A DNA stretch of 64,000 nt from Nanobdellota archaeon (GCA_038045945.1 JBBSXC010000004.1:192001-256000); one strand, 5' to 3'; counted from the first letter of the stretch, positions 15,213-33,622 are shown. Notes: a model not told the origin generated them from the letters alone. Made by a program: numbers and translations.

Positions 15213-15500
15213 ATGTTAAAAGTAAAAAAGATTAGTGAAATTTTAGGAAAAAAAGTATTCACCGACACTGGAGACTTCTTCGGAGAAGTTGAAGAAGTAA
15301 ACATTGTGGAGAACAAAATAGACGGTTGGAGAATAAGAGTAGCTGGAGAGTTTGGAGGATTCTTGGGAGGAGCAAGAGGAGTAATAATACCCCACCAATT
15401 CGTAAGAGCAATAGGAACAATAATGTTAGTAGCAAGAAGTTCGCTGCCAAACAATGAGTCTATGGAAGAATCAATGCCATCTGAAGAAGAGGCAATGTAA
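15213..15500 (+). CDS. PRC-barrel domain protein (CdpB-like possible)
   Basis: ISEILGKKVFTDTGDFFGEVEE...IIPHQFVRAIGTIMLV; TATA-like box upstream. Confidence 0.85.
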   Translation: MLKVKKISEILGKKVFTDTGDFFGEVEEVNIVENKIDGWRIRVAGEFGGFLGGARGVIIPHQFVRAIGTIMLVARSSLPNNESMEESMPSEEEAM

Positions 15501-15527
15501 AAAATCCTAAAAAAAGAATAAAAAGCT

Positions 15528-16019
15528 ATGGTAACAACTTTCTTTTCATCACCATTCCTAGTACAGGTCTTACTACCATTCGTAATACTATTCCTGGTAA
15601 TATACGCAATACTACAAAAAACAAAAATTCTTAGCGGAGACAACAAAACACTAAACGTGGTAATATCACTAGCATTATCAATAATAGCAGTATCATTTGC
15701 GTACCCAACTGACATAATAACAAGAATAATACCATTATTCGCAGTAACAATAGTAATAGTATTAGTACTAATGATAATATTCGCATTCGCAGAAGGAAAA
15801 GACAAATTCGAACTAAACAACGGAATAAAATACGCAATTTGGGGAATAGCAGGATTTGCAATACTAGCAATGGTTATATGGGCAAGCGGAATATGGACTT
15901 ACCTAACAAACAAAACACATTCAAACTTACTATGGAACATAATATTCTTCATAATAATAATAGCAGTAATAATAGTAGCATCAATAGGCGGAAGTAGCGG
16001 CGGAGACAAGAAAAAATAA
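15528..16019 (+). CDS. Membrane protein, paralog of 16101..16640
   Basis: Shared LPFxLxFxVxYAILxK...NxVxSLA pattern; about five TM helices. Confidence 0.75.
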   Translation: MVTTFFSSPFLVQVLLPFVILFLVIYAILQKTKILSGDNKTLNVVISLALSIIAVSFAYPTDIITRIIPLFAVTIVIVLVLMIIFAFAEGKDKFELNNGIKYAIWGIAGFAILAMVIWASGIWTYLTNKTHSNLLWNIIFFIIIIAVIIVASIGGSSGGDKKK

Positions 16020-16100
16020 CTCAAAAATTCTCAAAGGACAATATTTTAAGATAAACCAGTTTAACAAAAGATATATAAATAACCCGTCCGTTTTTTTAGA

Positions 16101-16640
16101 ATGGGATTATTAGAGGGATTCGCAACATACGACGCTGGAATAACAAAAGTTTTAGCTGATTGGGAAAAAATGGGTGTTTTCGCATATGTACTACCATTCA
16201 TACTAATATTTGCAGTAACATACGCAATTCTAGAAAAGATACCAGTATTCAAAGGCAAAAAGGGAATAAACCTTGTAGTATCATTAGCAATAGGACTACT
16301 ATCGTTACAAATGAACTTTGTAGCAGTATTCTTCAGAGAAATATTCCCAAGAGCAGGAATAGGGCTATCAGTACTGCTCGTATCATTAATATTATGCGGA
16401 GCATTCATAGACTGGGAAGGAAAAAAACACCAATGGATATTCTTCGGAGTAGGAGCAGTAACATTCTTATTCATAATAGCTAACGCATTCTCAGCATACT
16501 CAGGATACACCACAAACTGGTGGGAAGATTACGGAAGCGCAATAGTAATACTAATACTAGTAATAACACTAATAGTATTATCAATGACTATGGGAAGCTT
16601 CTCATACTTAGGAAGATCAACAAGAATACAAAGAAAGTAA
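16101..16640 (+). CDS. Membrane protein, paralog of 15528..16019
   Basis: YVLPFILIFAVTYAILEK...INLVVSLAIG; TATA box at 16072-16079. Confidence 0.75.
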   Translation: MGLLEGFATYDAGITKVLADWEKMGVFAYVLPFILIFAVTYAILEKIPVFKGKKGINLVVSLAIGLLSLQMNFVAVFFREIFPRAGIGLSVLLVSLILCGAFIDWEGKKHQWIFFGVGAVTFLFIIANAFSAYSGYTTNWWEDYGSAIVILILVITLIVLSMTMGSFSYLGRSTRIQRK

Positions 16641-16758
16641 AAAAAATATTCTCAGAACCGCATAAAAAGAAAAAGAACAATAATTATCCTACGAGCTAAT
16701 AATACTTATAAACCAACAATTAATCAGTAAAACAGAGGAAGAAAGAACAATAACCATT

Positions 16759-16908
16759 ATGGACCTAACAAAAAAGTGCGAGAAGTGCAAAGGATTCAAA
16801 AGAATAAAAAAAGCGGACGGAACAATACAACCATGCTGGGACTGCCTAATGAGCGGAGAAATGGACCAACACTCAAAAGACGTAAAAGACTCAGGACTAA
16901 AAGTATAA
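16759..16908 (+). CDS. 49-aa zinc-finger microprotein (not in ORF track)
   Basis: Translates MDLTKKCEKCKGFKRIKKADGTIQPCWDCLMSGEMDQHSKDVKDSGLKV; two CxxC pairs; host-like codon usage. Confidence 0.65.
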   Translation: MDLTKKCEKCKGFKRIKKADGTIQPCWDCLMSGEMDQHSKDVKDSGLKV

Positions 16909-16924
16909 AAAAACTAAAAACTAA

Positions 16925-17656
16925 TTATTTCTTAACCTTCTTCTTACTCTTCTTCCTTCTAGGCTTAACAACACGACCATTACCAATACTCCTAGACAAA
17001 GGCTCAATAATCTTAGAAAAAGAATTCTGAGTAGACTGTAAATCACTACCCAAATCCTGAATGTTCTGACCATACTCACCAATCTTACGAATAATAGAAT
17101 CCTGCAAAGTATCAATAATAGACTCTATACGCTTAATCCTTTCCTTAAGAAGAATAATCTTATTATCCGTATCAGACTTAAAATCATCAATCTTAGACAA
17201 CTCAGACTTAATCTTAACAATCTTTTGATCAAACACTTGCTCAGCAATCTCGGAAAAAGCCTCAGAGCCTTGAGGTTGAGAATAAGAATACTGGGGGTAG
17301 TTATCACTAGTAACCACAGGAGAAGAATAGGGCTCATAATAATTCTGATCGGCACTCTGCTGATAAGGAGAATCCTGGGGTGGCTGGAAATTAGGAGAAG
17401 GGGTAGGAGGAGAAAAATTAGAGGGGGCAGGCGCTGGAGGAGCAGAATTATTCATAATACTCTGCTGCATATTAGAATCACTAGAAGGATCACCATGGGG
17501 ATTATACTCCTGAGAAACAGCACTCTTAACCTGAAACTGAGAAAGAGCATCCTCAATCTCACGAGGCATAAAACCCTGATTCCTCAAATCAGTAACGATT
17601 TGAGAATCGGACCTACCAGCAGACTTGAGATCCTCAACCTGTTTAATAAGAGACAT
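16925..17656 (-). CDS. Hypothetical protein with helical N-domain, Pro/Gln/Ser linker and coiled coil
   Basis: 243 aa ORF with host-like minus-strand codon usage; heptad-rich C-half. Confidence 0.7.
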   Translation of the reverse strand: MSLIKQVEDLKSAGRSDSQIVTDLRNQGFMPREIEDALSQFQVKSAVSQEYNPHGDPSSDSNMQQSIMNNSAPPAPAPSNFSPPTPSPNFQPPQDSPYQQSADQNYYEPYSSPVVTSDNYPQYSYSQPQGSEAFSEIAEQVFDQKIVKIKSELSKIDDFKSDTDNKIILLKERIKRIESIIDTLQDSIIRKIGEYGQNIQDLGSDLQSTQNSFSKIIEPLSRSIGNGRVVKPRRKKSKKKVKK

Positions 17657-18012
17657 TAGAGTTTAGACTCCTGAATAATTCTTTTAACATCATCAACTGT
17701 AGTAAGCTTCAAAGGCTCAAACATACGAGCCTGACGCTGCAAAATCTCCAAATCAGCCTTACGAGCACGAGACTCAACATCCTCAGAAATCCTCCTAACA
17801 GAACCGGTCAACTTATCAACATCATCCCTAACAGCATCAAGAACAGACTTCATAGAAGAAACACCATGGGAAATCTCGGAACGAAAATCAACCAAGTTCT
17901 CACCAATTAAAAGAATCCTTTCTTTGAGAAGCTTATGCTTCTCCTCAAGATCCCTAAGCTTAGCAATAGGAGAGAATTCATCCTGAGAAACAAAACCTTG
18001 TTGTTCAACCAT
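17656..18012 (-). CDS. Coiled-coil hypothetical protein
   Basis: 118 aa heptad pattern; stop overlaps the start of 16925..17656. Confidence 0.7.
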   Translation of the reverse strand: MVEQQGFVSQDEFSPIAKLRDLEEKHKLLKERILLIGENLVDFRSEISHGVSSMKSVLDAVRDDVDKLTGSVRRISEDVESRARKADLEILQRQARMFEPLKLTTVDDVKRIIQESKL

Positions 18013-18171
18013 CTTTATATTATTAAGAATAGGATGATGAGTTTAAAATACTTACTGTCATAAGCAACGACAAAACAAGGTATAGAAAGAGTTTTTAATA
18101 ACACAAAACATCAAAACAATGAGCAACGAAACAAAGAAATTTGTTTAAGCAAAAAAAGAAGGAAAAAAATA

Positions 18172-20478
18172 ATGTTATTCAAAAAAGAGACACAACAATA
18201 CGGATACGAAATTATCAGAGAAAGCGGACAAGACATAATGTACATCAACTTCCTAAAAGTACCATTCGTGCCATCGATAGCAGAACAAGGACAAATAATG
18301 GCAAGAATAATAGACTACCTAATAGAAAACCCGAACACATCAAGAATAGTACTAGTACAACAAAGAAACTACAGCCACTCATTCTCACAAGTAAGCCTAC
18401 TAACAGAAATAGCAAGCTTATACAACACACTAATACAACAAGTAGGGCTACTAAGAGTCGACCCCAGAACACAAAACATTTGCAGAGAATGCACAGAAAG
18501 AAGAAACAAAAACATGACATACTTCCTAAGCATACTAAAACAAGACCCAATAGCAGCATACTACGAAATAAAAAGATTCAGAAACGAAGAAGAAGGAAAA
18601 ATAAATGTATCAGAACAAAAATGCAGAACGATAATAAACGACAACATAAGAGTAATAGAAAGAACAACAATGCTACTAGAATCAACAAGCATATACAAAA
18701 AACTAGAATCATCACTACCATATTACAAATTCGGTGAAAGAGAAATATACAACAATGTTCTACAACCAGACGTAGTACCAAACTTTACATTCACAAGACT
18801 CCTTGCATCACTACCAACAGACGCAGAAATAGTAAAACAATACCAAATAGCAGAAGGAAGCGACGAAAGCACAGTAACAATAATGAAAAAGAAAGACGAC
18901 CTAAAATACTTCTACCACCTAATGCCGCCAGAATACTCGTTAAGTGAAGACCATTACTACCTGCTAAACCTAGCAAGAAACGTACTAGTAGAACACGCAC
19001 CAAAAAACGAAGAATTCACAGACCCAGAAAGAACAAGACACGTATTCATAAACGTAAGCAAAGATCTCCTAAGAGAATTAGCCGCAAACAAAGGAGTAGC
19101 AATAAGCTACCAAGACCTAGAAAAATTAGCAAACATACTAGTGAGACACACAATAGGATTCGGAATACTAGAAGTATTACTACAAGACGAAAACATACAA
19201 GACATGATGCTAAACGCACCAGCAAGCATAAACCAAATATTCATAAAACACGGAGAATTCGACGAATGCGTAACAAACATAATACCAAGCCAAGAAGACG
19301 TACAATCGTGGGCAGCAAAATTCAGAATACTATCAGGAAGACCACTAGACGAAGCAAACCCGGTACTAGACACAAACTTGGAACTCGGAAGAATGAGTGC
19401 GAGAGTAGCAATAATACAACAGCCACTATCGCCAAACGGATTAGCATACGCATTTCGAAGACACAGAGACAACCCATGGACACTACCACTATTCATAAAA
19501 AACAAAATGTTAAGCCCACTAGCAGCAGGACTACTATCATTCCTAATAGATGGAGCAAGAACATTCCTAGTAGCAGGAACAAGAAGCAGCGGAAAAACAT
19601 CACTACTAGGAGCACTAATGCTAGAGATAATGCCCAAGTACAGAGTAATAGTACTAGAAGACACACTAGAACTACCAGTAGAGGCACTAAGAGAAATAGG
19701 GTACGATATTCTAAGAATGAAAGTAAGAAGCGCACTACTAGAAAAAACAAGCGAAGTAGCAGCAGACGAAGGAATAAGAACCTCGCTTAGACTAGGAGAC
19801 TCATCACTTATAGTTGGAGAAGTAAGAAGCATAGAAGCAAGAGCACTATACGAAGCAATGAGAGTAGGAGCACTAGCAAACGTAGTAGCTGGAACAATAC
19901 ACGGAGCATCACCATATGGAGTATTCGACAGAGTAGTAAACGACCTAGAAGTACCAGCAACAAGCTTCAAAGCAACAGACCTAATAATAATAGCAAACCC
20001 AGTAAGAAGCGCAGACGGACAAAAAAGCTACAGACGCATGATACAACTAACAGAAGTAAGAAAGGGATGGAGTAAAGATCCTGAAGAAGAACACGGATTC
20101 GTAGACCTACTAAGATACAACGTAGAAAAAGACATGCTAGAACCAACAGACGAACTAATAAACGGAGACAGCGAAGTAATAAAAGCAATAGCAGCAAACG
20201 TAAAAGGGTGGGCGGGAAACTGGGACGCAGTATGGGACAACATCCAACTAAGAGCAAAAATAAAAGAAGAAATAGTAAAACAAGCAGAAAAAAACAAAAC
20301 ACCAGAATTATTAGAAGCAAAATTCAACAGCTTAAGCAACTCAGCATTCTACAAAATAAGCGAAAAAGTAACAAAACAAGAAGGACTACCAAAAAGCGAA
20401 ATAGTATTCCCGCAATGGGAAGAATGGCTAAAACAAAAAATAAAAGAAATAAAAAGCGGGAAGAATAAAGAAGATTAG
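18172..20478 (+). CDS. Type II/IV secretion ATPase (FlaI/TadA/VirB11 family) with long N-terminal extension
   Basis: Walker A GTRSSGKT, Asp box LEDTLEL, Walker B LIVGEVR, His box GTIHG. Confidence 0.93.
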   Translation: MLFKKETQQYGYEIIRESGQDIMYINFLKVPFVPSIAEQGQIMARIIDYLIENPNTSRIVLVQQRNYSHSFSQVSLLTEIASLYNTLIQQVGLLRVDPRTQNICRECTERRNKNMTYFLSILKQDPIAAYYEIKRFRNEEEGKINVSEQKCRTIINDNIRVIERTTMLLESTSIYKKLESSLPYYKFGEREIYNNVLQPDVVPNFTFTRLLASLPTDAEIVKQYQIAEGSDESTVTIMKKKDDLKYFYHLMPPEYSLSEDHYYLLNLARNVLVEHAPKNEEFTDPERTRHVFINVSKDLLRELAANKGVAISYQDLEKLANILVRHTIGFGILEVLLQDENIQDMMLNAPASINQIFIKHGEFDECVTNIIPSQEDVQSWAAKFRILSGRPLDEANPVLDTNLELGRMSARVAIIQQPLSPNGLAYAFRRHRDNPWTLPLFIKNKMLSPLAAGLLSFLIDGARTFLVAGTRSSGKTSLLGALMLEIMPKYRVIVLEDTLELPVEALREIGYDILRMKVRSALLEKTSEVAADEGIRTSLRLGDSSLIVGEVRSIEARALYEAMRVGALANVVAGTIHGASPYGVFDRVVNDLEVPATSFKATDLIIIANPVRSADGQKSYRRMIQLTEVRKGWSKDPEEEHGFVDLLRYNVEKDMLEPTDELINGDSEVIKAIAANVKGWAGNWDAVWDNIQLRAKIKEEIVKQAEKNKTPELLEAKFNSLSNSAFYKISEKVTKQEGLPKSEIVFPQWEEWLKQKIKEIKSGKNKED

Positions 20479-20616
20479 ACTTTTATTTTTTGTTTTAGAT
20501 AGAAATTTAATTATCTGCTAATCAACCCATTCTAAATAATGTTGCCTTGATCTTTTGTGGACTAGGTTTTTCTTTATGGCACATATAACGGTAGTATCTG
20601 TATTCACAACTACACC

Positions 20617-20853
20617 TCATCTTTCTTCACTTCTTTTTTCAAGATAAGCCGCAACTCCAAAAGCCGTAAGGCTAATACCTAAAACTACGGCTGTTGGGCC
20701 TAAAAGTTCCGGATCATAAACTTTTGCGCCCTGTTCGTTTGGACCAATAAAATCGCCAACACCCTTAAGCAGGCCATAATAAGTTCCAGCCATAACTGAC
20801 CCGCCAAATAGCAAGGCTAAGTCTAGCTTTGAGAGTCTTCTTCTTTCATTCAT
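20617..20853 (-). CDS. Small two-TM hypothetical protein
   Basis: 78 aa, two hydrophobic segments, GGAGGT Shine-Dalgarno upstream of the ATG. Confidence 0.6.
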   Translation of the reverse strand: MNERRRLSKLDLALLFGGSVMAGTYYGLLKGVGDFIGPNEQGAKVYDPELLGPTAVVLGISLTAFGVAAYLEKRSEER

Positions 20854-20915
20854 TTTTTACCTCCAAAATATTTATTCATTACTACCATGTACTCCTCAAA
20901 GCCTTTTGAATCTAA

Positions 20916-20936: not shown

Positions 20937-20966
20937 AATTAAAAAGCTAAAAATCAATGTTTTCAT

Positions 20967-21695
20967 ATGGATATTTATGAACAGTTAGGAGAAGCTGGCC
21001 TAACAGGTAATGAATCAAAAGTTTACAAGGAATTATTGGTAAGGGGTCAGTCTTCAGCAAATAGGATAGCAAAACAACTATCAATGGATAGAACACTAAG
21101 CTATACTGTACTAAACCACCTAATAGAAAAGGGATTGGTGAGTTATACTGTAAAAGAAGGTAAAAAATTCTTTGAAGCATCAAATCCCAAAAATCTCTTA
21201 AACCAAGTAAAGAAAAAAGAGCTAATAATAGGAGAATTAATAAAAGAGTTAAGTAAAATAAAAAAAAATTCTAATTCGCCTTTAGAAATTAATGTGTATG
21301 AAGGAAGAGAGGGACTAAGGAGTTGGTTCAACTTCGTTCTAGATAAGAGTAAAGAGTTCTTATCATTTGGAGCAACTGGAAAAGCATTTTATGAACTTTA
21401 TGAAATGCCTGCACTAACAAAAAACGTAAAAAAGATGAAGCTAAAAGTAAGAATCGTAGGCAACAAGGAACATCAAAAAACAGAAGCATTCAATGTGCCT
21501 CATGTAGAATATAGGTATTTAGACGTTAAGTCAGAGGCAACAACATCGATATTTGGAGAATACATTTCAATACATCTCATAAAAGAAAAACCATTCATAA
21601 TACTAATAAAAAATAAGGAAATAGCAGAAAGTTACAAGAACTATTTTGAGGTCTTATGGTCCAGCGCTAAGAAATATAAAGTGGGGAAAGCATAA
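20967..21695 (+). CDS. TrmB family transcriptional regulator
   Basis: GLTGNESKVY...LIEKGLV HTH, VYEGREG, C-terminal IAESYKNYFEVLW. Confidence 0.9.
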   Translation: MDIYEQLGEAGLTGNESKVYKELLVRGQSSANRIAKQLSMDRTLSYTVLNHLIEKGLVSYTVKEGKKFFEASNPKNLLNQVKKKELIIGELIKELSKIKKNSNSPLEINVYEGREGLRSWFNFVLDKSKEFLSFGATGKAFYELYEMPALTKNVKKMKLKVRIVGNKEHQKTEAFNVPHVEYRYLDVKSEATTSIFGEYISIHLIKEKPFIILIKNKEIAESYKNYFEVLWSSAKKYKVGKA

Positions 21696-21714: not shown

Positions 21715-23883
21715 GTGAAAATGGCGTATAATGATGATGAAACAAGAAGAATAATAGAAAAGTATGAAAGAAAACTAGGAAACCAAATAAACCTAAGCAA
21801 CACAAGAACAAATTCTGGAATAGGGGGAGTAGATATGTCACGAGAATACTCACAATTCAAAGAAGAAATGATACCTCAAATATCAAGATACGAAAGACTA
21901 TGCAAAAGCCTAGGAAGCATAATAACAGTAAAAGTATCAAGCAAAGACGAAGGAAAAATACAAAGATCACTAGACATAGCACACCTAGAAATAACGCCGG
22001 GAGAATCATTTGGTCTGGCAATAATGGCATTACTAATAGTAATGATACTAGGAATAATAAGCGCGACAATAATATACCTACTAACAAACGAAATATCACT
22101 ATCATTTATTTTCTTATCATTCCTAACAGCAATATTTTTGTTCTATTACTATTACTCAACACCAGAAAGATTAGCAAACAAATGGAGACTGAAAGCAAGC
22201 AGCCAAATGGTACCATGCATGCTATACGTAGTAGCATACATGAAACACACAAGCAACTTAGAAAGAGCAATACAATTTGTAAGCCAAAACCTACCAGCAC
22301 CACTATCACTAGACTTCAAAAAAGTATTCTACGATGTAGAAACAGGAAGATACTCGAGCATAAAGGAAAGCCTAGACCATTACTTAGAAACATGGAGAGA
22401 TTACAGCATAGAATTCGTAGAAAGCTTCCACTTAGTAGAAAGCAGCTTGTACGAACCAGATGAATCGGAAAGACTCAGAATACTAGAAAGATCACTGCAG
22501 GTAATACTAGATGGAGTATACGAAAAAATGTTAAAGTTCAGCCATGAAGTAAGAAGCCCATTAACAAACCTATACATGCTAGGAATAGTACTACCAACAC
22601 TAGGGCTAGCACTACTGCCACTGGCAAGCGCACTACTAGGAGGAATAGTAAAATGGTACCACATAGTACTATTATTCAACATAATAATACCATTAGGAGT
22701 ATTTTATCTGTCAAGCCAAATAATGCTAAAAAGGCCAGGAGGATACGGAGAAACAGACACACTAGAAAAAAATCCTTATTACCCAGAATACAAATCAACA
22801 AGTCATTATTGGAAAGCACTAATAATAGTACTACCACTAATAATACTAGGACTATCACCACTGTTCATAACACAAATAATAGGACAAGACCCGAAAATGA
22901 CAGACCTAGGACTAAGCATATTCGGACCAGTAAAAGTTTTTGATTACCAAACAGCAGCAAACGGAAAAGTGACAGGGCCATTTGGGCTAGGGGCACTAAT
23001 ACTAAGCTTATTCTTACCATTAGGAATAGCAATGTTTTTCGCAATAGCATACAAAGCAAAAACAAAAAATTTGATACAGGCACGCGAAAAATCAAAAAGT
23101 TTAGAAGAAGAATTCGCAAGTTCACTATTCCAACTAGGAAACAGAATAGGTGACGGAACACCAGCAGAATTAGCATTCGGAAAAGTAGCAGAATCATCAA
23201 AAGGACAAATAACAGCAGAATTCTTCAACGTAGTAAACATAAACATAAAACAAGTAGGAATGAGCCTAGAAGAAGCAATATTCAATAATTCAAGAGGAGC
23301 AATAATATACTACCCATCAAACCTGATAGCAACAAGCATGAGAATCCTCACAGAAAGCGTAAAGAAAGGCCTGGCTGTAGCTGCAAGAAGCCTAATGAGC
23401 ATAAGCGAATACATAAAAAACATACACAAAATAAACGAAAGACTAAGAGATTTATTAGCAGAAGTAGTATCAGACATGAAAAGCAACATGACATTCCTAG
23501 CACCACTACTATCGGGAATAGTACTTGGGCTAGCATTCATGATAACAGCAATACTATCAAGACTAGAACTACTATTCCAAGCAGGAGGAGACCAAGCGAT
23601 AGAAGGATTCGGAAATTTGTCATCAATACTAACAATATTCGACCTAAAATCAATGATACCACCATACTTCCTACAAGCATCAATAGGAATATACATAATA
23701 GAAATAGCATTCATACTAACAAACGCGCTAGTAACAGTAGACTCTGGAGAAGACGAACTAAAAAAAACAAACGAGCTAGGAAAAAACCTAAAAACAGGAA
23801 TAATACTATACATAATAGTAGCACTAATATCAACAGTAACACTAGCAATACTAGCATCAGTAGCTTTGAAAGGTGTAGGTTAG
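21715..23883 (+). CDS. Pilus assembly platform protein (TadB/TadC, FlaJ-like; two T2SSF-like repeats)
   Basis: Two cytoplasmic domains each followed by TM hairpins (NLERAI; GTPAELAF...GMSLEEAIF); downstream of the ATPase. Confidence 0.82.
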   Translation: MKMAYNDDETRRIIEKYERKLGNQINLSNTRTNSGIGGVDMSREYSQFKEEMIPQISRYERLCKSLGSIITVKVSSKDEGKIQRSLDIAHLEITPGESFGLAIMALLIVMILGIISATIIYLLTNEISLSFIFLSFLTAIFLFYYYYSTPERLANKWRLKASSQMVPCMLYVVAYMKHTSNLERAIQFVSQNLPAPLSLDFKKVFYDVETGRYSSIKESLDHYLETWRDYSIEFVESFHLVESSLYEPDESERLRILERSLQVILDGVYEKMLKFSHEVRSPLTNLYMLGIVLPTLGLALLPLASALLGGIVKWYHIVLLFNIIIPLGVFYLSSQIMLKRPGGYGETDTLEKNPYYPEYKSTSHYWKALIIVLPLIILGLSPLFITQIIGQDPKMTDLGLSIFGPVKVFDYQTAANGKVTGPFGLGALILSLFLPLGIAMFFAIAYKAKTKNLIQAREKSKSLEEEFASSLFQLGNRIGDGTPAELAFGKVAESSKGQITAEFFNVVNINIKQVGMSLEEAIFNNSRGAIIYYPSNLIATSMRILTESVKKGLAVAARSLMSISEYIKNIHKINERLRDLLAEVVSDMKSNMTFLAPLLSGIVLGLAFMITAILSRLELLFQAGGDQAIEGFGNLSSILTIFDLKSMIPPYFLQASIGIYIIEIAFILTNALVTVDSGEDELKKTNELGKNLKTGIILYIIVALISTVTLAILASVALKGVG

Positions 23884-27000: not shown

Positions 27001-27226
27001 AAACAATAATGCACAAATACCCCAACAACCTGCTAGTAAAGGAGTAGGGGCAGGAACATTAAGCGAAGAAAAAATAATTTCTTCATCAACATGGTGGACT
27101 ATAGGAATAATAGTAACAATAATAGTATTAGCAATAATTGTAGCATTACTAATAACAAAGTACCAACAATACAAAGAAAACAAAAACTCAAGAAAAGTAA
27201 GAGTTTACGGAAATCTAGCAAAATAA
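24023..27226 (+). CDS. Large cell-surface glycoprotein (S-layer/adhesin-like)
   Basis: Signal peptide, dense N-x-S/T sequons, SSSSGSGGGGGGGG linker, C-terminal TM helix and basic tail. Confidence 0.75.
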   Translation: MVNLERNNYILIITMLLMFPLVNAFDANFSSSSPFLDLSQNNTINITIGAMSNNITEIEFRYQTNLAGSPLPDLFINSSNGTSATSINFSDNTNYSATITRTYLLNFTNSSGTPIINNGTTKNFWISVAARRMDSGTGALLSLQIKTKDLNGNINTTTISFFPSFAFTGYVLNETACVSCGQNGTNVSIYGASQTQNGPPSSTLLASTMTNASGYFRIARVNASSSFGGFQLKMVYYNATGTATKTGMIMPQFPSFMYYGAGGDGEFDMSLNGATFYLQQAFTINLSANNGTTPVSFGYEIVDQALGFPIESSSQQKTNNVQVVVPASRGYTISFFRMPAFPGSSIGYSNDPACFGTDFMNDSLCPAPPKTYAISAANAVGGNVSIINQSLIIRKVNLIGCLNPASGVNSSPVNVTAINIKMLPWTTSAGSFVPPTRGDDGRINLTQSINYTTTGCPFAFYNISVLNQTGYMLEFYAKNGSVESDNPGSANNLASFINLTSNDELRMNGTLYKLAGTYRTTNQTGLAINTSSIKINVINSSGGAVTTSINANIKVRHTASGIGTVFYMIDTSSISNGSFYLPIFNNSNYAKAMIFSQNGPPKEISLNLSATEINITMTSMSMDKGFKKFNSTGGLDSTNTTSIPIRMRFLRNTPECGMADAPSTCVITEMNASSFNPLKALLAGKVNMELKITSTNVTLIYKDYDMMSAKQPPMESVMGDSADARGTTSGSTAVRDTWNFGSFAPADSYSNVTVIIPYSDTTTASGYINDSAQVNVSIPVLYDENNRVTWNKSMGSDYVNLSDDFSAYNSTYYRGLMNTSGVICQSGGFNETCFKNTTGNYLALNIPHFSTIGAQISGAATTASSDSSSSGSGGGGGGGGNGYHTYSITQYQLDSGYNKVLYAYDKIRMNISGQYHNVMLISISSSGATINVSSTPQQKVFAIGEKSSFDVTDDGKKDIEVKLEKINSTSGWANVTVTRITTTNNSIVPQNQTNNNAQIPQQPASKGVGAGTLSEEKIISSSTWWTIGIIVTIIVLAIIVALLITKYQQYKENKNSRKVRVYGNLAK

Positions 27227-27282: not shown

Positions 27283-27438
27283 ATGAAAGAAAAAAGGGGA
27301 CAAGAGACAAGCACACTAATACCATGGATAATAGCAGTAGCCATTTTAGGGCTAGTTATTGCTGGAACTATAATAATAAATCGTAGTGGATCTTCTGCTA
27401 TTGATGTTATTAAGTCGATGCTTGGAAGAGGTTCTTAG
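27283..27438 (+). CDS. 51-aa Flp-like micro-pilin (not in ORF track)
   Basis: MKEKRG/QETSTLIPWIIAVAILGLVIAGTIII...; TATA at 27254-27261; stop abuts the next ATG. Confidence 0.75.
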   Translation: MKEKRGQETSTLIPWIIAVAILGLVIAGTIIINRSGSSAIDVIKSMLGRGS

Positions 27439-28422
27439 ATGATTCGACACAAGGGCGGTCAGAGTGTAACAAGTTCTAAGCTAACTATCTGGGTAATCGC
27501 AGCAATAGTTTTGGTGATAGTTCTTGGGGGAATAATGAAGTTTGGAATACTGGAAAAAATTTATGGGATTTTCCCAGACTATACTGTTGATGATGCAAAT
27601 AATCTAATAAAATCTCAGGAAGACGCCGTGCCTATTCAAGAAAAGACTTCTGGTGACTGGGCTTCAATAAACGGGCGGATAGAGGACAAGGGGCATCTAC
27701 CTATTATTGGTTTAGAATTTGATATGGCTACAGGTATCTTAGAGTATGGAGACATAGCAGATAATGCTGTGTTCCGATGGAATCCTGATTTTATGGGAGA
27801 CCTCAGTATGCGGGGAAGAGTCCAAGTATACTTAAGATCAAACTTTAAAAAAGTTGATGCAGGAGGATATAGGCTCAGTCCAACATCTTACAAAGAAGGT
27901 TATGCTGACCTCCACGAAACTTCAAGAGATTATATCAACAAAATTATGAATTCAGACTCAGAAGAAGAAATGTTTGAGAATATTTACCAAGTAACAAAGA
28001 ACGAACCAGAACACATTAAAGTAATGCTACACTCAATTTACGGGGAATATTCAAGGCCTGCAAGAGAAATCTCTCTGCCAGAGTCTTACCAAAAACTTTT
28101 AACTCTAAGTCATAAAAACTACGTTGATGACGTTGATACTAACACCGAAGATGGAAAAATGATAACGGGTTATGAGCGGGTAGTCATATATCCTAATATG
28201 GTGCTTGAAGAAACGTTATTTGAAAAAAATAGTTGGGAAAAAACTAAATACCAAAATTTATACTTTTATTCTAAAGAAATAGACGCCTGGAATGGTAAAG
28301 AAAAGGTTTCTGTCTACCTGCTAAATAATAAAATCGCCAAGATAATAAGAGAATCTGCTGAAGGAAAATCCGAATCAATAGATTTCCATTATCTGATGAT
28401 AGAGAAAAATGATAAAAACTAA
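27439..28422 (+). CDS. Class III signal-peptide (pilin-like) protein
   Basis: MIRHKGG/QSV followed by a hydrophobic helix. Confidence 0.7.
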   Translation: MIRHKGGQSVTSSKLTIWVIAAIVLVIVLGGIMKFGILEKIYGIFPDYTVDDANNLIKSQEDAVPIQEKTSGDWASINGRIEDKGHLPIIGLEFDMATGILEYGDIADNAVFRWNPDFMGDLSMRGRVQVYLRSNFKKVDAGGYRLSPTSYKEGYADLHETSRDYINKIMNSDSEEEMFENIYQVTKNEPEHIKVMLHSIYGEYSRPAREISLPESYQKLLTLSHKNYVDDVDTNTEDGKMITGYERVVIYPNMVLEETLFEKNSWEKTKYQNLYFYSKEIDAWNGKEKVSVYLLNNKIAKIIRESAEGKSESIDFHYLMIEKNDKN

Positions 28423-28936
28423 CAAAAAAGGATTTGAACTACTAGGTGGAAAGACTGTGGGAATAATAATCGGCCTTTTATGTTTAATAGTCTTATTAAC
28501 TCTCGGAGCAAAAATAGCGGGCGTTAGATCCCAAGCAGAGACAAAAGAAAGAGCTCAAGGGATGATGAATGAAATAGTTAGCATAATGGAAAAACTAAAT
28601 GAAGGACAAAGTCAAGAATATTTCATAACTGCTGTTCATGAATGGTATTTAGTAAGGAATTTTGATGTCTACCCGAGATCATGTAACGGAGATTATGAAT
28701 GTTTTTGTTTATGCCCTGATGAAAGCTATGAATCTTGTTTCAGTTATGATATATGCAAAGCTCCATACTACATAACTCTAAAAAAACTTCCAAGTGATTC
28801 GGGCTCGGCTCGCACTCTTGAGTTACATTCCCCAGTCAAGGGGTCTGATGAGTTAAAACAGAGCCTTGTGATAACAAAAAACTCTGACGGCTATTTAATC
28901 ACTTATAAACCTCTGCTACAAAAAGTTTCAACATGA
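28409..28936 (+). CDS. Pilin-like protein with Cys-rich domain
   Basis: NKKG/FELLG plus hydrophobic helix; CNG..ECFCLC..C..C. Confidence 0.75.
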   Translation: MIKTNKKGFELLGGKTVGIIIGLLCLIVLLTLGAKIAGVRSQAETKERAQGMMNEIVSIMEKLNEGQSQEYFITAVHEWYLVRNFDVYPRSCNGDYECFCLCPDESYESCFSYDICKAPYYITLKKLPSDSGSARTLELHSPVKGSDELKQSLVITKNSDGYLITYKPLLQKVST

Positions 28937-29052
28937 GAAAAAAAGGAGAAGGAGACATGAGTCCAATTATAAAAATATTACTCTTGATAGCATTTGCTCT
29001 ACTAGCCGGGGGAGCAGTCTATGTTTTAGTAACAAAAATAATTGGAGAATGA
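28933..29052 (+). CDS. 39-aa micro-pilin (not in ORF track)
   Basis: MRKKG/EGDMSPIIKILLLIAFALLAGGAVYVLVTKIIGE; ATGA overlap with the upstream gene. Confidence 0.7.
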   Translation: MRKKGEGDMSPIIKILLLIAFALLAGGAVYVLVTKIIGE

Positions 29053-29081
29053 TATTTAAAGTTAGAAAAACAAGAGAAATA

Positions 29082-30137
29082 ATGGAAAGTAAAAAAGGGG
29101 AGCTTACATCAGGGCAAATAATAGTTGTGATAATATTAGTTCTAAGCTTTGCAGCAGTGCTATTCTTCTACAATCTTTTAGACTTTGATAAACAAGTAGA
29201 CCGAGACGTTTGTGAAGCTACAATAGCTGCAAGAGGGGCGGCGAGATATGATGAAATATTTGAGTTGGGCCCTACAAGTATACCTCTGAAATGTAAAACC
29301 GAAAAGTATTGTATCTCGGATAGTGAAAATCTTGATGGAAAATGCGCTGGTTTGCCTCAAACAGAAGACAATCCTGTAAAAGCACAGGTCCTAAAAAAAG
29401 AAGGATCAACGCTGAGAGAGGTGAGGGAAGAGTACCTTGATTTCTTATCAGAGCAGTTATACAGCTGTAACCAACTTTTGGGAGAGGGTGAAATAAACTT
29501 CCTGCCTACAAAATCTTGGGACAAAAGTTATTGCTTAATATGTTCAAGAATAGAAGTGGATGAGAAATACAGAGACGAAATAGGAAAAGTTACTTATTTA
29601 GAATTATATAAACATATGGAAGAAAAGATGGCGCTTGATGGAAAATCATACTTAGAACATCTGGGGATGATAGAAGCAGAAAAAGCATTGAGCAACATAC
29701 TTGAAAGCATAAAGAAAACAGCTGAAGACAGCGACGATAAACAATTTGCAAGTACAATGCAACGAACAACTTTAAACAACTGGTATCTACCAGAAGGACA
29801 ATTTGCAATAATATCGATGATGCATATAGATGGAAACTTAGAAGAAGTTGTATCTGGTGTCGGTACTGGAATAGCTGTGGGGGGCGTGATAATTGCAGGC
29901 GTATTCTCTGGCGGGGCAACTTGGGCAGCATTACCATTCCTTATAGGGGGAACAGTTGTAGGAGTAGGGGCGGGAGCAACAGCTGGAGGATTTGTTTATG
30001 CATTAGGGTCAAGAAATAATGACTTTGAAAAAGGCGACCAAGAAGGAGAATATTTCTATTTACCGCCAACAATACACAGCTATGACTCAAAAACAATCAA
30101 TGCTCTAGGATGCAACAGCTTTGAAACAGCACCATAG
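29082..30137 (+). CDS. Pilin-like protein with C-terminal glycine-zipper hydrophobic hairpin
   Basis: MESKKG/ELTSG plus hydrophobic helix; PLKCKT and CLICS; long Gly/Ala/Val segment near the C-terminus. Confidence 0.75.
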   Translation: MESKKGELTSGQIIVVIILVLSFAAVLFFYNLLDFDKQVDRDVCEATIAARGAARYDEIFELGPTSIPLKCKTEKYCISDSENLDGKCAGLPQTEDNPVKAQVLKKEGSTLREVREEYLDFLSEQLYSCNQLLGEGEINFLPTKSWDKSYCLICSRIEVDEKYRDEIGKVTYLELYKHMEEKMALDGKSYLEHLGMIEAEKALSNILESIKKTAEDSDDKQFASTMQRTTLNNWYLPEGQFAIISMMHIDGNLEEVVSGVGTGIAVGGVIIAGVFSGGATWAALPFLIGGTVVGVGAGATAGGFVYALGSRNNDFEKGDQEGEYFYLPPTIHSYDSKTINALGCNSFETAP

Positions 30138-30154
30138 GGGGTGGTTATATAAAC

Positions 30155-30577
30155 ATGCTATGCAAAAATAAAAAGGGGACAGAAAACTTACAATATCTTG
30201 TTATATACCTAATACTAACGATAGCTTTCTTCGCAGCAATGTTCATATTTGTCTATAGCTCCTCCTCAGGCCTTTCCTTTAAAGAAAAAGCCTACGCAAG
30301 ACAAATAGCACTGATTATAGATTCAATGGAGCCTGGAACAACAGTAACATTAAACTTAGATTACATGAGAATAATAGCTAAAGAGAGTGAATACAGGGGT
30401 CCAGTCGTGTCTTTTATACAAAACAAAGATGGAATAAACGAAATAATAGTCCAGCTATCACAAAGTAATGGGCATTCATACAGATACTTTACGAGAATAG
30501 AACAACCTCTATTCAATGACGCCGGAAACATTGTGGAAATAAAAACTAAAAACAAAATTATCGAGGCACGATCATAA
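30155..30577 (+). CDS. Pilin-like protein
   Basis: NKKG/TENL plus hydrophobic helix; YARQIALIID. Confidence 0.72.
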   Translation: MLCKNKKGTENLQYLVIYLILTIAFFAAMFIFVYSSSSGLSFKEKAYARQIALIIDSMEPGTTVTLNLDYMRIIAKESEYRGPVVSFIQNKDGINEIIVQLSQSNGHSYRYFTRIEQPLFNDAGNIVEIKTKNKIIEARS

Positions 30578-30578
30578 A

Positions 30579-31094
30579 ATGTTAAATCTATCAAATAAAC
30601 GAGGTGAAGAAATAATATTTTTCTGGTTTTTCATAATATTCCTAGCTGTTGGAGTAACTTTTGGAGCAACAATCTCAGTTTTCAACTCATCAAAAACAGA
30701 CATAAGACTACTAGAATCAGAAATATTAGCACAGAAGGTTGCTAACTGTTTAATACGAGATAATGCCTTAGATTTAAATCTGTTAAGGAGCAAGGAAGAA
30801 TTTATGGAACTGTGTGGCCTAGAAGAAAAAATAATTGATAAATCAGGGCATTTTTACATAAACCTCACCATAACAAGAATAGAAGACCTTGAAAGCAAAA
30901 AAGTATTCAAAAATCTAGACTTAGGAAATAATGACTTAGTAATGCAATGCTCACTAAAAGAAGCATCTGACTCTGACGAGTCCATTAATCTGGGAATATG
31001 CTCTTATAGGAGAGTTTATGTAAACTTCTTAACAAATAATAAAAAAGAGCACGGGGTACTAGAAATAACTACTGGGGCTAACACAAAACTATGA
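30579..31094 (+). CDS. Pilin-like protein
   Basis: NKRG/EEII plus hydrophobic helix; four Cys. Confidence 0.72.
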   Translation: MLNLSNKRGEEIIFFWFFIIFLAVGVTFGATISVFNSSKTDIRLLESEILAQKVANCLIRDNALDLNLLRSKEEFMELCGLEEKIIDKSGHFYINLTITRIEDLESKKVFKNLDLGNNDLVMQCSLKEASDSDESINLGICSYRRVYVNFLTNNKKEHGVLEITTGANTKL

Positions 31095-31492
31095 TTAACA
31101 AAAAAGCAGAAATCGGAGCAACAATAGCTTGGATACCAGCAATCTTTGTAATAGCAATTATAATCTCAGTATACGTCGTGTTAGCAACGGGTGAACGAGC
31201 AAAATTAGGACAAGTACAATACGAACTCTTAACATCTTCTGAAAATCTAAAAGACACAGTAATACTACAATCACTGAGCACGTTAATCATTAATGGAAAA
31301 CTGTTCGATGCTGAATTAATAAAAAAGATCTGCAAAAATTATGATCTAAGATTCTTAGAGCTCGGAAAAGACTATTCTCAAGATGCAGAAAACCAAAGGC
31401 TTGATATGAACCTAAAAAGAAAAATAGACCTGGTCTATTATGGTTCTGGCGAACAGAAGAGGGTTGTCTTCAGGGAGGGAATTAGATGTTAG
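31091..31492 (+). CDS. Pilin-like protein
   Basis: MINKKA/EIGATIAW plus hydrophobic helix. Confidence 0.72.
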   Translation: MINKKAEIGATIAWIPAIFVIAIIISVYVVLATGERAKLGQVQYELLTSSENLKDTVILQSLSTLIINGKLFDAELIKKICKNYDLRFLELGKDYSQDAENQRLDMNLKRKIDLVYYGSGEQKRVVFREGIRC

Positions 31493-31971
31493 TAAAAGCC
31501 GTTCATAATAAGCGTGGTTCAATATCGATACCTGTAGTCGTAATCGTATTCTTAATTCTAACACTCGCTGCGTATTCGCTGATGGTTTTTGGAAAAGAAA
31601 GAGAAGACTCCCAAACCTCTATCAGTCCGGGATTATTTTTGAGGGAAACTTATGTTAAAGAACAAGCGATAAGGCTATACGTAGACGGCGTTACTACCGA
31701 ATCAATAAGAATTTCAACAAAAGATAAAGAGTTGGATTTAGACCAATTTAAAAAAAGCTTTTTGGAAAAAATCAGAGAAGGATACTCAACATATCCTGAG
31801 ATGCAACAGTTGGAAGGTCAATTATCAAAAATAAGCTATAGTGAAAAAAGGTTAAAAGAAAACTTCGTAGTTTTACTAGCATCAACCTCCAGAATGCGTT
31901 ACAATGGCGAAAACTACCGAGTTGCAGAAGCAAAACACCAATTTTTAATAGACAGAGAATACTCATCATAA
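31486..31971 (+). CDS. Pilin-like protein
   Basis: NKRG/SISIP plus hydrophobic helix. Confidence 0.72.
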   Translation: MLVKAVHNKRGSISIPVVVIVFLILTLAAYSLMVFGKEREDSQTSISPGLFLRETYVKEQAIRLYVDGVTTESIRISTKDKELDLDQFKKSFLEKIREGYSTYPEMQQLEGQLSKISYSEKRLKENFVVLLASTSRMRYNGENYRVAEAKHQFLIDREYSS

Positions 31972-32013
31972 AATTTTAGAAACCTTTATAAATAAGCAGA
32001 ACTTTGAGCTTGA

Positions 32014-32517
32014 ATGATAAGTAAAAGGGGAGGTATGACTGGGCCGGAGATTGTTGGACTCGTACTGGCTTTTTTAGTACTCGCCCTTTTAGCTTGGGGA
32101 TTTTCTATTGGTTTTTTCTCATCTTTTGGTAATATTTTCAATCTTGGTGGCGGGAAATCAACAGTTAGTAGCGTTGTAACGTCTTGTAATGCTGCATGTA
32201 ACAATAACCCAAATGCATTCTGCAACGAAAATAAGGAGTTTTCCTTCGAGGACGGAGTAAAACAATCCGCGACTTGTGAACAACTAATGCAAGGGAAATC
32301 ATTCCAAGTCACTATAGATGGCAAACAAGAAACCAAAACTGTCTTGGGAATTAATAACTGTTTTATATGTAAAAATGCTGCCTTCGTGCCTGAAGTGGCC
32401 GCATGTAAGGGCAAGGCTAAAAATGATATTTGCCAGTATACCGCAGCAGGCAGTTCTACGTTAACGTCTGGTGCTTGTCAGGAAAAAGAGAAAGTATTGA
32501 CATGTATCTCTGCTTAA
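32014..32517 (+). CDS. Pilin-like protein, Cys-rich; major pilin candidate
   Basis: MISKRGG/MTGPE (Glu at +5) plus hydrophobic helix; own TATA box at 31985-31992; T-rich tract after the stop. Confidence 0.75.
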   Translation: MISKRGGMTGPEIVGLVLAFLVLALLAWGFSIGFFSSFGNIFNLGGGKSTVSSVVTSCNAACNNNPNAFCNENKEFSFEDGVKQSATCEQLMQGKSFQVTIDGKQETKTVLGINNCFICKNAAFVPEVAACKGKAKNDICQYTAAGSSTLTSGACQEKEKVLTCISA

Positions 32518-32569
32518 ACTTTTTATTATTCTATAAATTTTTAAATAACGATTACTCTTAATTATAATC

Positions 32570-32689
32570 ATGTCTGACGATTACGCAACACCTCACCAAA
32601 GAAAGAGCAAGAAAGATAAGTGGAGAAAGAGAAGAGATAGAGTATACAAAAGGGGCGGAAAGTATAGGGGAACAGACTTAGGAGTATAA
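32570..32689 (+). CDS. 39-aa highly basic microprotein (not in ORF track)
   Basis: MSDDYATPHQRKSKKDKWRKRRDRVYKRGGKYRGTDLGV; TTTAAATA box 22 nt upstream. Confidence 0.6.
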   Translation: MSDDYATPHQRKSKKDKWRKRRDRVYKRGGKYRGTDLGV

Positions 32690-32749
32690 AAGGAAAAAAG
32701 CGTACTTTGAGCAAGGATTAAAAAAGGAATAAATTCTAAGAAAATAATA

Positions 32750-33622
32750 ATGGATTACTTAATAGGGCTAATAATCATAGGGTTCTTATGGGTTATAACG
32801 GCAACAATATTTGACATAAAAACAAAAGAAGTACCAAACTGGCTAAACTTTACATTAATAATAGTAACAATAACATACAGACTACTATACTCAATAACAA
32901 CAAACAATTACGGAATAGTAATAAGCGGAATAATAGGACTAATAACATTCACAATAATAGCAAACTTGCTATACTACGCAAAAGCATTCGGAGGAGGAGA
33001 CGCAAAACTACTAATAGCCTTAGGGGGAGTACTATGGCTAAGCACGGACTGGAAAACAAGCTTAGCATACGCAACAATATTCATAATGAGCCTACTAATA
33101 ATAGGGTTCATATACGGAATAACAATGAGCATAATAATTCTAGCAAGAAGTAAAAAAGAAACAAAAAAGAGCTTCATGAAATTCCTAAAAAAACAAACAA
33201 AAAACAACAAAAACCTACTAATAATAACAGCACTACTAGTAATAATAGCAGCAATAACAAGCATCTACTACAAATCAATAGCCGGATTGACAATAACAAT
33301 AATCCTAGCATTACTACCAATACTACTAATATACTCAAAAACAGTAGAAAAAACACTACTAACAAAAAAAATACTCACAAAAGAACTAAGACCTGGGGAC
33401 TGGCTAGAAAAAGACATAAAAATAGGAAGATCACAAATAATAAAAGCAAAATTTGACGGGGTAACAAAAGAAGAAATAAAAATAATAAAAAAGAACTTAG
33501 AATACGTATCAATAAAAGACGGGATACCATTCGTACCAGCATTCCTAATAACTTACACTACAACAATAATATTATGGTACTCTGGAAGGAGCTTTATAAC
33601 GAACACTCTTAGCCTTATCTGA
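32750..33622 (+). CDS. Prepilin/preflagellin peptidase (A24)
   Basis: Catalytic aspartates in IFDIKTKEVPNW and FGGGDAKL; C-terminal IPFVPAF. Confidence 0.92.
   Translation: MDYLIGLIIIGFLWVITATIFDIKTKEVPNWLNFTLIIVTITYRLLYSITTNNYGIVISGIIGLITFTIIANLLYYAKAFGGGDAKLLIALGGVLWLSTDWKTSLAYATIFIMSLLIIGFIYGITMSIIILARSKKETKKSFMKFLKKQTKNNKNLLIITALLVIIAAITSIYYKSIAGLTITIILALLPILLIYSKTVEKTLLTKKILTKELRPGDWLEKDIKIGRSQIIKAKFDGVTKEEIKIIKKNLEYVSIKDGIPFVPAFLITYTTTIILWYSGRSFITNTLSLI

Follow-up and report, generated by a model that had tools for sequence, protein, structure and literature searches.

A Ten-Slot Prepilin Array With a Subclade 4F Motor in Nanobdellota Archaea and Its Possible Role in DNA Uptake

Related Filament Systems

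The motor ATPase of archaeal type IV filament (T4F) subclade 4F is known from nanoarchaea, where the search for the pilins that go with it was unsuccessful (Makarova et al., 2016, PMC4858521). Published rows for Pacearchaeota list arCOG01818 and, two genes on, arCOG01814, and assign the peptidase to arCOG02300, while one Pacearchaeota locus lists only arCOG05055 in the pilin rows; in N. equitans, a published table places RadA next to the 4-clade ATPase. For cluster 2 DPANN archaea, the passages of Hamm et al. (2024, PMC11291902) considered here describe a core of coiled-coil protein, CpaF and TadC as type IV pilus-like loci, and propose a role in host interaction. A T4F survey from 2026 saw the pilins of Nanobdellati as scattered. 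On the methanogen side, transformation of M. maripaludis requires a type IV-like pilus together with a gene for an OB-fold protein with a single transmembrane segment (TM) and a TctA-like gene (PMC10133366). Pacearchaeales and Woesearchaeales are abundant archaea, most of which have not been cultured.

The locus considered here lies in a window, i.e., the whole analyzed stretch, of 64,000 nucleotides from a Nanobdellota archaeon (GCA_038045945.1, JBBSXC010000004.1:192001-256000; Table 1). It fills the reported gap in the pilins of the nanoarchaeal 4F motor, with an ordered ten-slot array where the 2026 survey saw scattered genes. This array is tied to the handling of ssDNA, to a candidate DNA channel of archaea, and to enzymes whose only substrate is the bacterial wall. 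The ATPase, platform, ten-gene array and A24 peptidase named in a preliminary description all lie where it had placed them. Its claim of an undescribed system, however, cannot be upheld: the nanoarchaeal 4F motor appears in Makarova et al. (2016, PMC4858521), and the core in the passages of Hamm et al. (2024, PMC11291902), whose loci share a pair of coiled-coil genes next to ATPase and TadC, the 6GAO match and the same lineages. Those passages describe neither a pilin array nor a membrane triplet, and mention no TctA, hydrolase fusions or link to RPA. The preliminary description did not include the TrmB regulator or an ORF of 78 aa located between the ATPase and platform genes, and it missed the RPA/RadA link and the OB + TctA pair, which lie outside the region it covered.

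Table 1. Features of the filament locus and associated genes; positions are counted from the first nucleotide of the window.
Feature	Position	Strand	Basis or remark
TctA-like membrane protein, 402 aa, ~12 TM	7229..8437	-	PF01970 E 1.5e-34
97-aa single-TM protein, probable divergent OB-fold TctA partner (MMJJ_13020-like)	8434..8727	-	
PRC-barrel protein	15213..15500	+	PF05239 E 3e-7; syntenic neighbor; filament link putative
mem1, 5-TM membrane protein	15528..16019	+	conserved upstream of ATPase (synteny)
mem2, 5-TM membrane protein, mem1 paralogue	16101..16640	+	candidate base component
Coiled-coil protein, 243 aa (CCP of Hamm 2024)	16925..17656	-	synteny; 6GAO profile match
Second CCP, coiled-coil, 118 aa	17656..18012	-	synteny reaching an Aenigmarchaeota locus
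Secretion ATPase, 768 aa, subclade 4F / arCOG01818 type	18172..20478	+	PF00437, tree
TrmB-family regulator, local insertion	20967..21695	+	PF01978 E 1e-12
TadC-type platform, 9-TM, arCOG01814 type	21724..23883 (alternative start 21715)	+	
S-layer-like glycoprotein, 1067 aa	24023..27226	+	58 sequons; not a conserved part
p1, 51-aa headless (Flp-like) prepilin	27283..27438	+	32/43 order-level arrays
p2, 327-aa prepilin, orphan head	27439..28422	+	
p3, 175-aa prepilin	28409..28936	+	38/43 arrays
p4, 39-aa headless prepilin	28933..29052	+	18/43 arrays; TIGR02537 E 0.0017, below cut-off
p5, 351-aa Cys-rich pilin	29082..30137	+	Gly-rich hydrophobic hairpin loop
p6, core minor pilin	30155..30577	+	42/43 arrays
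p7, core minor pilin	30579..31094	+	53/60 relatives
p8, core minor pilin	31091..31492	+	43/43 arrays
p9, core minor pilin	31486..31971	+	40/43 arrays; directly before RPA in most lineages
p10, candidate major pilin	32014..32517	+	putative role
A24 prepilin peptidase	32750..33622	+	PF01478 E 1.4e-11
RPA, ssDNA-binding protein	34832..35788	+	array linkage across the class
RadA recombinase	36865..37899	-	PF08423 E 3.5e-93; synteny

Motor, Platform, and Peptidase

The ATPase matches PF00437 over residues 381-608 (Pfam, E 6e-12), with the Walker A motif GTRSSGKT at 469 and the Walker B motif GEVRSIE at 549; the long N-terminal extension recognized previously corresponds to residues 1-290 and is conserved among 1197 homologues. 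Orthologues occur in 58/60 relatives (49-79% identity) and in 118 of the 120 phylum genomes, nearly always in single copy, and nine genomes carry intein-sized insertions in the gene, a pattern by which the ATPase behaves like an essential gene. Its closest named relatives are from Ca. Pacearchaeota. Judged by sequence, the motor is a member of archaeal subclade 4F: the phylogeny, which had been suggested as a check, consists of quick trees, in which the ATPase groups (SH-aLRT 100) with that of a 4F locus on an H. turkmenica plasmid, the single named 4F reference and one on a long branch, with crenarchaeal clade 4, Aap and Ups sequences absent from the tree. Further likeness to this subclade is found in the single 9-TM platform, the coiled-coil accessory proteins, the partly conserved cysteines of the ATPase extension and, here, the S-layer-like neighbor. 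In contrast to the PilA-family pilins of subclade 4F, arCOG02981 and arCOG10216, the locus has a ten-slot, lineage-specific array, in which p7 is modeled with an alpha/beta head, and its peptidase is linked to the locus and EppA-like.

Other described systems fit less well. The competence pilus of Methanococcus is Epd, of clade 1, to which the motor does not belong: the ATPases are ~30% identical, and one clade with Epd, a label inferred in the tree from two adjacent platform genes in genome G181, is rejected (p-AU 2e-9). Moreover, Epd/system 1 has two platform genes, whereas the locus has one fused gene. As an archaellum motor, the ATPase scores 132 with NF058587 (cut-off 550) and falls on a separate branch from FlaI; in line with the earlier impression, no locus protein scanned with Pfam and NCBIfam matches the archaellin or FlaH families. 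For Aap, Ups and Bas, which combine an arCOG01817-type motor with PilA-family pilins, the BasE model reaches 74 bits (cut-off 1000), and the accessory proteins AapX, UpsX and BasC gave no matches. A gene-for-gene correspondence with Epd, Aap, Ups or Bas, raised in the preliminary description as the finding that would speak against it, was not observed.

The platform, a single gene product of 719-722 aa with nine predicted TMs, matches no Pfam or NCBIfam family at cut-off and is colinear with the 4F TadC of H. turkmenica (arCOG01814, E 1.4e-41). Its initial reading as a double-domain protein is borne out in part: the N-terminal half aligns with single TadC proteins (E about 2e-5), the C-terminal half does so weakly (E 0.03), and the two halves show no significant alignment with each other (hhalign). 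The A24 peptidase is the only one found in the window's genome, where 46 class III-like candidates share it. It has EppA-like extra TMs and an EppA-like C-terminal motif, with an N-domain closer to FlaK (E 1e-12 vs. 0.14).

The Prepilin Array

Ten consecutive ORFs (27283-32517) with intergenic gaps of -14 to 42 bp form the array. All of them (10/10) pass a relaxed class III filter, whereas the strict pattern of FlaFind, the check proposed earlier, fits only p5 and p8 by eye (2/10). Since the relaxed filter passes 46 of the 975 called genes genome-wide, a run of ten is not due to chance, and the claim of ten consecutive pilin-like genes holds at this level. Among relatives, 435/503 slot genes carry a class III motif, with Gln as the commonest +1 residue (94/435). 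Many minor pilins, headless pilins and Gln at +1 are features shared with Epd/system 1 of M. maripaludis (PMC10133366, PMC13705601), whose EppA peptidase the A24 protein resembles in part.

The slots p6-p9 resemble a fixed minor-pilin set, without a clear major pilin, and p6-p7-p8 are contiguous in 46/56 arrays. The anticipated type IV filament of DPANN type, with its many minor pilins, is supported. p10 is a candidate major pilin because it has its own BRE/TATA-like promoter, is often duplicated and is mobile in position. p4 is the sole array ORF with a TIGR02537 match, albeit a weak one. For p2, a homologue search returned only p2 itself and an Atlas search nothing usable; the slot is hypervariable. 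p5 probably starts at 29082 (MESKKG) rather than at 29049. Its hairpin spans residues of about 260-310, and a glycine-rich hydrophobic hairpin is present in 50 of 66 slot-5 sequences. The AF2 model of p5 (pTM 0.78) leaves the hairpin loop unresolved, the fold search (pdb, pdb_via_wide) gave no clear match (best Z 3.3), and the p5 profile has no PDB sequence match. p7 is modeled by AF2 (pLDDT 92) as a long N-terminal helix followed by an alpha/beta head with an antiparallel sheet and four conserved Cys, for which the same search returned no clear match (best Z 6.9, to unrelated folds).

Wall Hydrolases in Relatives

Pfam wall-hydrolase domains are found on array pilins at 21/73 loci (14/53 at the order level and 7/20 from other orders). 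The class III motif is present in 18 of the 23 hydrolase-bearing pilins, and several keep catalytic motifs. The p2 slot of relatives carries SLT, M23 or lysozyme domains; p3 is often fused to amidase, SLT, glucosaminidase or M15; a hydrolase is inserted into p7 in some relatives; and p9 carries SLT, M23 or NlpC/P60 in other orders. At least six unrelated muralytic families have been swapped onto these four slots. Most hydrolases of relatives lie outside the array (SLT in 29/36 genomes, M23 in 20/22), and the window's genome has no recognized wall hydrolase by Pfam SLT and M23 and seven local profiles (one M23 match, E 0.002). The earlier proposal of delivery is supported in part by the fusions in relatives.

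Links to DNA Handling

RPA comes directly after p9 in 14/14 loci of the order outside the window's family, and at array loci of other orders it is nearby in 14/17, vs. TadC in 4/17 and RadA in 6/17. The gaps range from -7 to 168 bp, and the counts come from related genomes, which do not provide independent observations. The window's family has A24, HIT and EF-1beta separating the array from RPA. RPA is a single-copy housekeeping gene in the window's genome, and its place by the array may therefore reflect an ancestral gene order retained by small genomes.

The TctA-like protein, present in 56/60 relatives and 108/120 phylum genomes, is 30% identical over 407 aa to a Methanothermococcus protein and is a candidate DNA channel, by analogy with the proposal for MMJJ_13030 of M. 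maripaludis. The OB protein of the window has no Pfam match (E 0.05 vs. an OB profile), and proteins at the same position in relatives match PF01336 (E 6e-10 to 4e-7); an OB-profile gene lies directly upstream of TctA at 8/20 loci and also in Methanothermococcus. The window holds the OB + TctA gene pair of Methanococcus-type competence (PMC10133366, PMC13705601), with a divergent OB copy. TctA is 10 kb away, behind housekeeping genes, and is also found in H. volcanii and M. acetivorans. In a further difference from the Methanococcus system, the thermonuclease family essential for transformation is patchy, with members in 28/121 genomes; the window's genome has one with an N-terminal TM. ComEC and RuBisCO were not found in the window's genome (93% complete), nor was GARS, and no palindromic operator shared by OB/TctA and the array was found in it. 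The lack of RuBisCO means that nucleoside fermentation is not indicated.

Possible Functions of the Filament

Bacterial Com pili and the competence pili of CPR bacteria, which serve here as an analogy, have one motor, a fixed minor-pilin set, and an ssDNA protein and a recombinase nearby. The locus differs from the Com pilus in lacking ComEC (in the window's genome), in its motor lineage and in the wall-hydrolase-bearing pilins of relatives. On balance, we see about even chances that the locus encodes a type IV filament that is core to Nanoarchaeia (Pacearchaeales, Woesearchaeales and related orders), built by a 4F ATPase and platform from lineage-specific pilins, with DNA uptake as its main job. 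The functional evidence consists throughout of associations, and such a filament would probably be aimed at bacterial cells; the wall-cutting enzymes on the subunits of many relatives would make bacteria the DNA source.

For DNA uptake, A24 would cleave the ten prepilins, p6-p9 might form a priming or tip complex with p3 and p5, and p10 or p1 would extend the filament. Where present, hydrolase heads on p2, p3, p7 or p9 could open bacterial peptidoglycan. DNA would then enter by the TctA-like channel, together with the OB protein anchored in the membrane, and RPA and RadA would take it up inside; a DNA-binding pilin was not identified. For a cell that does not make purines de novo, this DNA would provide a nucleotide supply, in addition to repair and recombination. 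Natural competence, if true, would open these archaea to genetics, as happened with CPR bacteria.

The same hydrolases could belong to a host-contact organelle without dedicated DNA import, which would attach to a bacterium, digest its wall and open a feeding or delivery contact via the p5 hairpin, with RPA and RadA as mere neighbors. The variety of muralytic families on four slots, the recurrent p5 hairpin and the hypervariable p2 all suit such an organelle, as do the host interaction proposed in the Hamm et al. passages and the transglycosylases of Woese- and Pacearchaeota, previously taken to indicate that bacteria are attacked. However, hydrolases are recognized in a minority of arrays and not in the window's genome, the array stays with RPA more consistently than with its platform gene, and, in the same passages (Hamm et al., 2024, PMC11291902), the core is also found in lineages with archaeal hosts; we consider this explanation less likely than DNA uptake. 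Somewhat less probable still is a contact-dependent DNA-feeding harpoon, whose interchangeable hydrolases would breach the wall and whose p5 hairpin would enter the prey membrane, so that host DNA is drawn through TctA/OB to RPA and RadA; if true, Pacearchaeales and Woesearchaeales would have it as their core organ for feeding, and bacteria would be the hosts.

A short pseudopilus or bindosome-like machine, which would display or secrete the genome's many class III proteins as well as large surface enzymes at the S-layer, is among the functionalized platforms proposed by the 2026 survey. It would accommodate 46 class III-like candidates with one peptidase and a minor-pilin set without a clear major pilin, but leaves the RPA/RadA link and the retained OB + TctA pair unexplained, and we consider it improbable. 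An ordinary pilus for adhesion, the role proposed for other 4F systems and for those of clade 2, is the established default for archaeal type IV pili and would suit the S-layer-like gene frequent at 4F loci (Makarova et al., 2016, PMC4858521). Against it, a plain adhesin would not be expected to be kept in single copy almost everywhere or to carry hydrolase fusions, and a second locus has canonical pilins; we consider it very unlikely.

Second Filament Locus and Neighboring Genes

The second T4F of the window's genome (C3:164-173 kb) has canonical PilA-like pilins, which makes plain host attachment, as first suggested, less likely for the array locus. This second filament can cover adhesion and was counted in favor of DNA uptake.

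The TrmB gene, the 78-aa ORF and the glycoprotein are local insertions; TrmB is seldom at this place in relatives. The surface glycoprotein reported earlier is indeed present, with N- and C-terminal TMs and N-glycosylation sequons well above shuffled sequences (mean 23, maximum 36), but is not part of the conserved system: a full-length homologue occurs only in locus L004 of the same genus, with one shorter match in L105. Upstream, the PRC-barrel protein is possibly of the cell-division CdpB type, and the profile of the 243-aa coiled-coil protein matches the sigma-1 structure. mem1 matched no family among Pfam and NCBIfam profiles, and the mem proteins gave one marginal match in 40 Methanococci-side genomes. 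The Atlas clusters of mem2 are unnamed, and their commonest phylum is Nanobdellota.

Composition and Conservation of the Locus

The locus is real and conserved, its pilin array is the new part, and a role in feeding or competence is a testable hypothesis. The genes of the preliminary description are present at their given positions: the secretion ATPase has intact Walker motifs, and its 290-aa N-terminal extension is common to 1197 homologues (named members mostly Ca. Pacearchaeota or Nanoarchaeota), while the ten consecutive prepilin-like genes (p1-p10) are tightly packed, with intergenic gaps of -14 to 42 bp. As for the suggested FlaFind-type check, all ten carry a relaxed class III motif, which 46 of the 975 called genes in this 847-kb genome also pass, but only two match the strict FlaFind pattern, which is probably why annotation missed these prepilins. 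About 30 proteins of the genome are plausible class III substrates for the single peptidase. The 1067-aa protein is credible as a surface glycoprotein (58 sequons vs. a shuffle maximum of 36), but its gene, like that for TrmB, is a local insertion. The forward strand of the whole window is strongly asymmetric (A 42%, T 22%), less so over the array.

Coordinates of the locus and of associated features (window positions unless a contig or relative locus is named)
Feature	Position	Remark
TctA-like gene	7229-8437 (-)	
Probable OB-fold partner	8434-8727 (-)	
Hef-type helicase	12377-14074	Precedes the locus in several lineages (also relative locus L045)
Secretion ATPase	18172-20478	
TrmB	20967-21695	
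TadC platform	21724-23883	
Glycoprotein	24023-27226	
Prepilins p1-p10	27283-32517	p7, core minor pilin; p10, candidate major pilin
39-aa ORF	32570-32689	Strongly basic, between p10 and peptidase; no family match
A24 peptidase	32750-33622	
RPA	34832-35788	
RadA	36865-37899 (-)	
YdjM-family membrane gene	37939-38451; relative locus L006:18180-18635	Found repeatedly next to RadA or between it and RPA
632-aa class III protein (KRG/QVTIF), then orphan 1804-aa membrane-anchored protein	51998-59339	Relatives encode ~2000-aa proteins with SLT or M23 domains
Third PF00437 match, same genome	C1:116292-117464	390 aa
Second type IV filament locus, same genome	C3:164004-173154	Six canonical PilA-like prepilins, 513-aa ATPase, 440-aa platform
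Run of four class III-like genes, same genome	C4:39247-41821	Outside the window
Three tandem paralogues of the upstream 5-TM proteins, same genome	C7:1674-4473	Longer than these
Thermonuclease gene adjoining or close to TctA on its upstream side, same strand	G089 C35:6003-7660; G117 C3:72305-75476	Two comparison genomes

An orthologue of the ATPase was identified in 58 of 60 relatives; across the phylum, 118 of 120 genomes carry it, almost always in a single copy. Nine genomes (G018, G055, G089, G094, G104, G117, G128, G132, G180) carry intein-sized insertions near residues 487-499 and 554, adjoining catalytic motifs, and precomputed PF14528/PF14890 domains (LAGLIDADG and intein) occur in 7 of the 120 ATPase homologues listed. 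Upstream, two to three paralogous 5-TM genes and two coiled-coil genes in opposite orientation are found class-wide and in one Aenigmarchaeota locus. Profile matches to p7 were obtained in 53/60 relatives and 35/120 phylum genomes, the lower figure of which may reflect sequence divergence. Among array loci fetched around a selection of all p7 matches (43 order-level, 17 from other orders), slots keep their order, and p6-p7-p8 are contiguous in 46/56; in the 43 order-level arrays, p8 recurs in 43, p5 and p6 in 42 each, p9 in 40, p3 in 38, p10 in 36, p1 in 32 and p4 in 18. In three loci of one family (L018, L019, L021), differently inverted pilin blocks surround inserted 630-730 aa secreted orphan genes.

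Motor Class and Relation to Described Systems

The best plasmid match of the ATPase is that of H. turkmenica, whose locus belongs to subclade 4F (Makarova 2016, PMC4858521). In quick trees, where the 4F reference is a single long branch and crenarchaeal references are absent, the two group together (SH-aLRT 100), while Methanococci clade 1, FlaI and the second ATPase of this genome fall outside; a common clade with presumed Epd ATPases was rejected (p-AU 2e-9). We therefore regard the system as a chimera of a 4F motor, a putatively EppA-like peptidase and pilins of its own. In the haloarchaeal 4F plasmid locus, a superfamily II helicase likewise follows TadC.

A coiled-coil/CpaF/TadC core has been described for cluster 2 DPANN (Hamm 2024, PMC11291902), and the window's 243-aa coiled-coil protein gives the same 6GAO match as reported there. 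The idea of an undescribed system is not supported, since it is known in outline from this core and the 4F motor; what is new is its pilin array. A 2026 survey treats Nanobdellati pilins as scattered, and its table gives the layout of the present locus for one Pacearchaeota genome, with just a single pilin recognised between arCOG01814 and arCOG02300 (PMC13705601).

Linkage to DNA-Handling Genes

As the most likely reading, at roughly even odds, we propose a DNA-uptake filament that would bring DNA to a TctA/OB channel, from which it would be passed to RPA and RadA, and that would often carry arms to reach DNA within bacterial walls. RPA directly follows p9 in 14/14 order-level loci outside the window's family and is present in 14 of 17 array loci from other orders (RadA in 6, TadC in 4), counts that come from related and hence non-independent genomes. 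The p9-RPA gaps span -7 to 168 bp; loci of the window's family have A24, HIT and EF-1beta genes between the array and RPA. The arCOG01818 ATPase of N. equitans comes immediately after RadA; genome G119 has the same order and does not enter as a second case.

In M. maripaludis, transformation depends on a type IV-like pilus and a secreted thermonuclease as well as on an OB/1-TM and a TctA-like gene (PMC10133366); the presence of such genes was examined here as a prediction. TctA occurs in the window, 56/60 relatives and 108/120 phylum genomes, and in 8 of 20 further loci the gene just upstream matches an OB profile, as it does in Aenigmarchaeota and Methanothermococcus. Three positional homologues of the window's putative OB gene match PF01336, the window's own copy scoring just E 0.05 against an OB profile. 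TctA is apparently fragmented in G119, a genome lacking a p7 match; this is a single case. Searches of the source genome found neither ComEC nor GARS. However, RPA is a single-copy housekeeping gene in the source genome, RuBisCO is absent from it, the thermonuclease family occurs in just 28/121 genomes, TctA is also present in H. volcanii and M. acetivorans, and a search of the source genome revealed no operator common to OB/TctA and the array, all of which count against the DNA-handling link.

DNA import via pili has been proposed generically. Literature searches, exclusive of Dataset 13 of Hamm 2024 and the Undinarchaeota supplementary discussion, which may bear on the point, turned up no paper that connects the array with RPA, TctA or pilins fused to hydrolases; the texts compared came from PMC4858521, PMC13705601, PMC10133366, PMC11291902, PMC8204110, PMC12352652, PMC9723730, PMC9563170 and PMC7414124.

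Wall Hydrolases and Alternative Functions

Pfam scans of 58 and 118 proteins (the latter array-region proteins exceeding their slot's usual length) identified SLT, Amidase_2, glucosaminidase, phage lysozyme, M23, M15 or NlpC/P60 domains in 14/53 order-level and 7/20 other-order arrays, and local profiles added four SLT-like cases. The domains are borne by slots p2, p3, p7 (inserted inside the head) and p9, and 18 of 23 hydrolase-bearing array proteins have the class III motif. This link is tempered by genome-wide controls: of the 36/61 genomes with SLT, 7 have it within the array, and of the 22/61 with M23, 2 do. No wall hydrolase was recognised in the source genome, whose p2 head is an orphan; wall hydrolases of these archaea are published, the parts compared not mentioning pili. 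Wall-breaching contact without DNA import, which would draw on the same hydrolases and make RPA and RadA mere neighbours, is possible but rather unlikely.

The predicted p7 structure consists of a long N-terminal helix and an alpha/beta head; p5 gave a confident model, for which structure searches found no fold match. A Gly-rich hydrophobic loop, present in 50 of 66 p5 sequences, is unresolved in the model and projects from the sheet. We infer that it inserts into a membrane, which could equally be that of the cell itself, where it would act as an anchor. A pseudopilus for display or secretion is an improbable reading of the array.

The second type IV filament is the likelier adhesion pilus, and plain adhesion by the array seems very improbable. 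The third PF00437 protein, the strongest match to the profile (E 3e-42), has no pilus genes nearby and is possibly a PilT/GspE-like bacterial-type ATPase.
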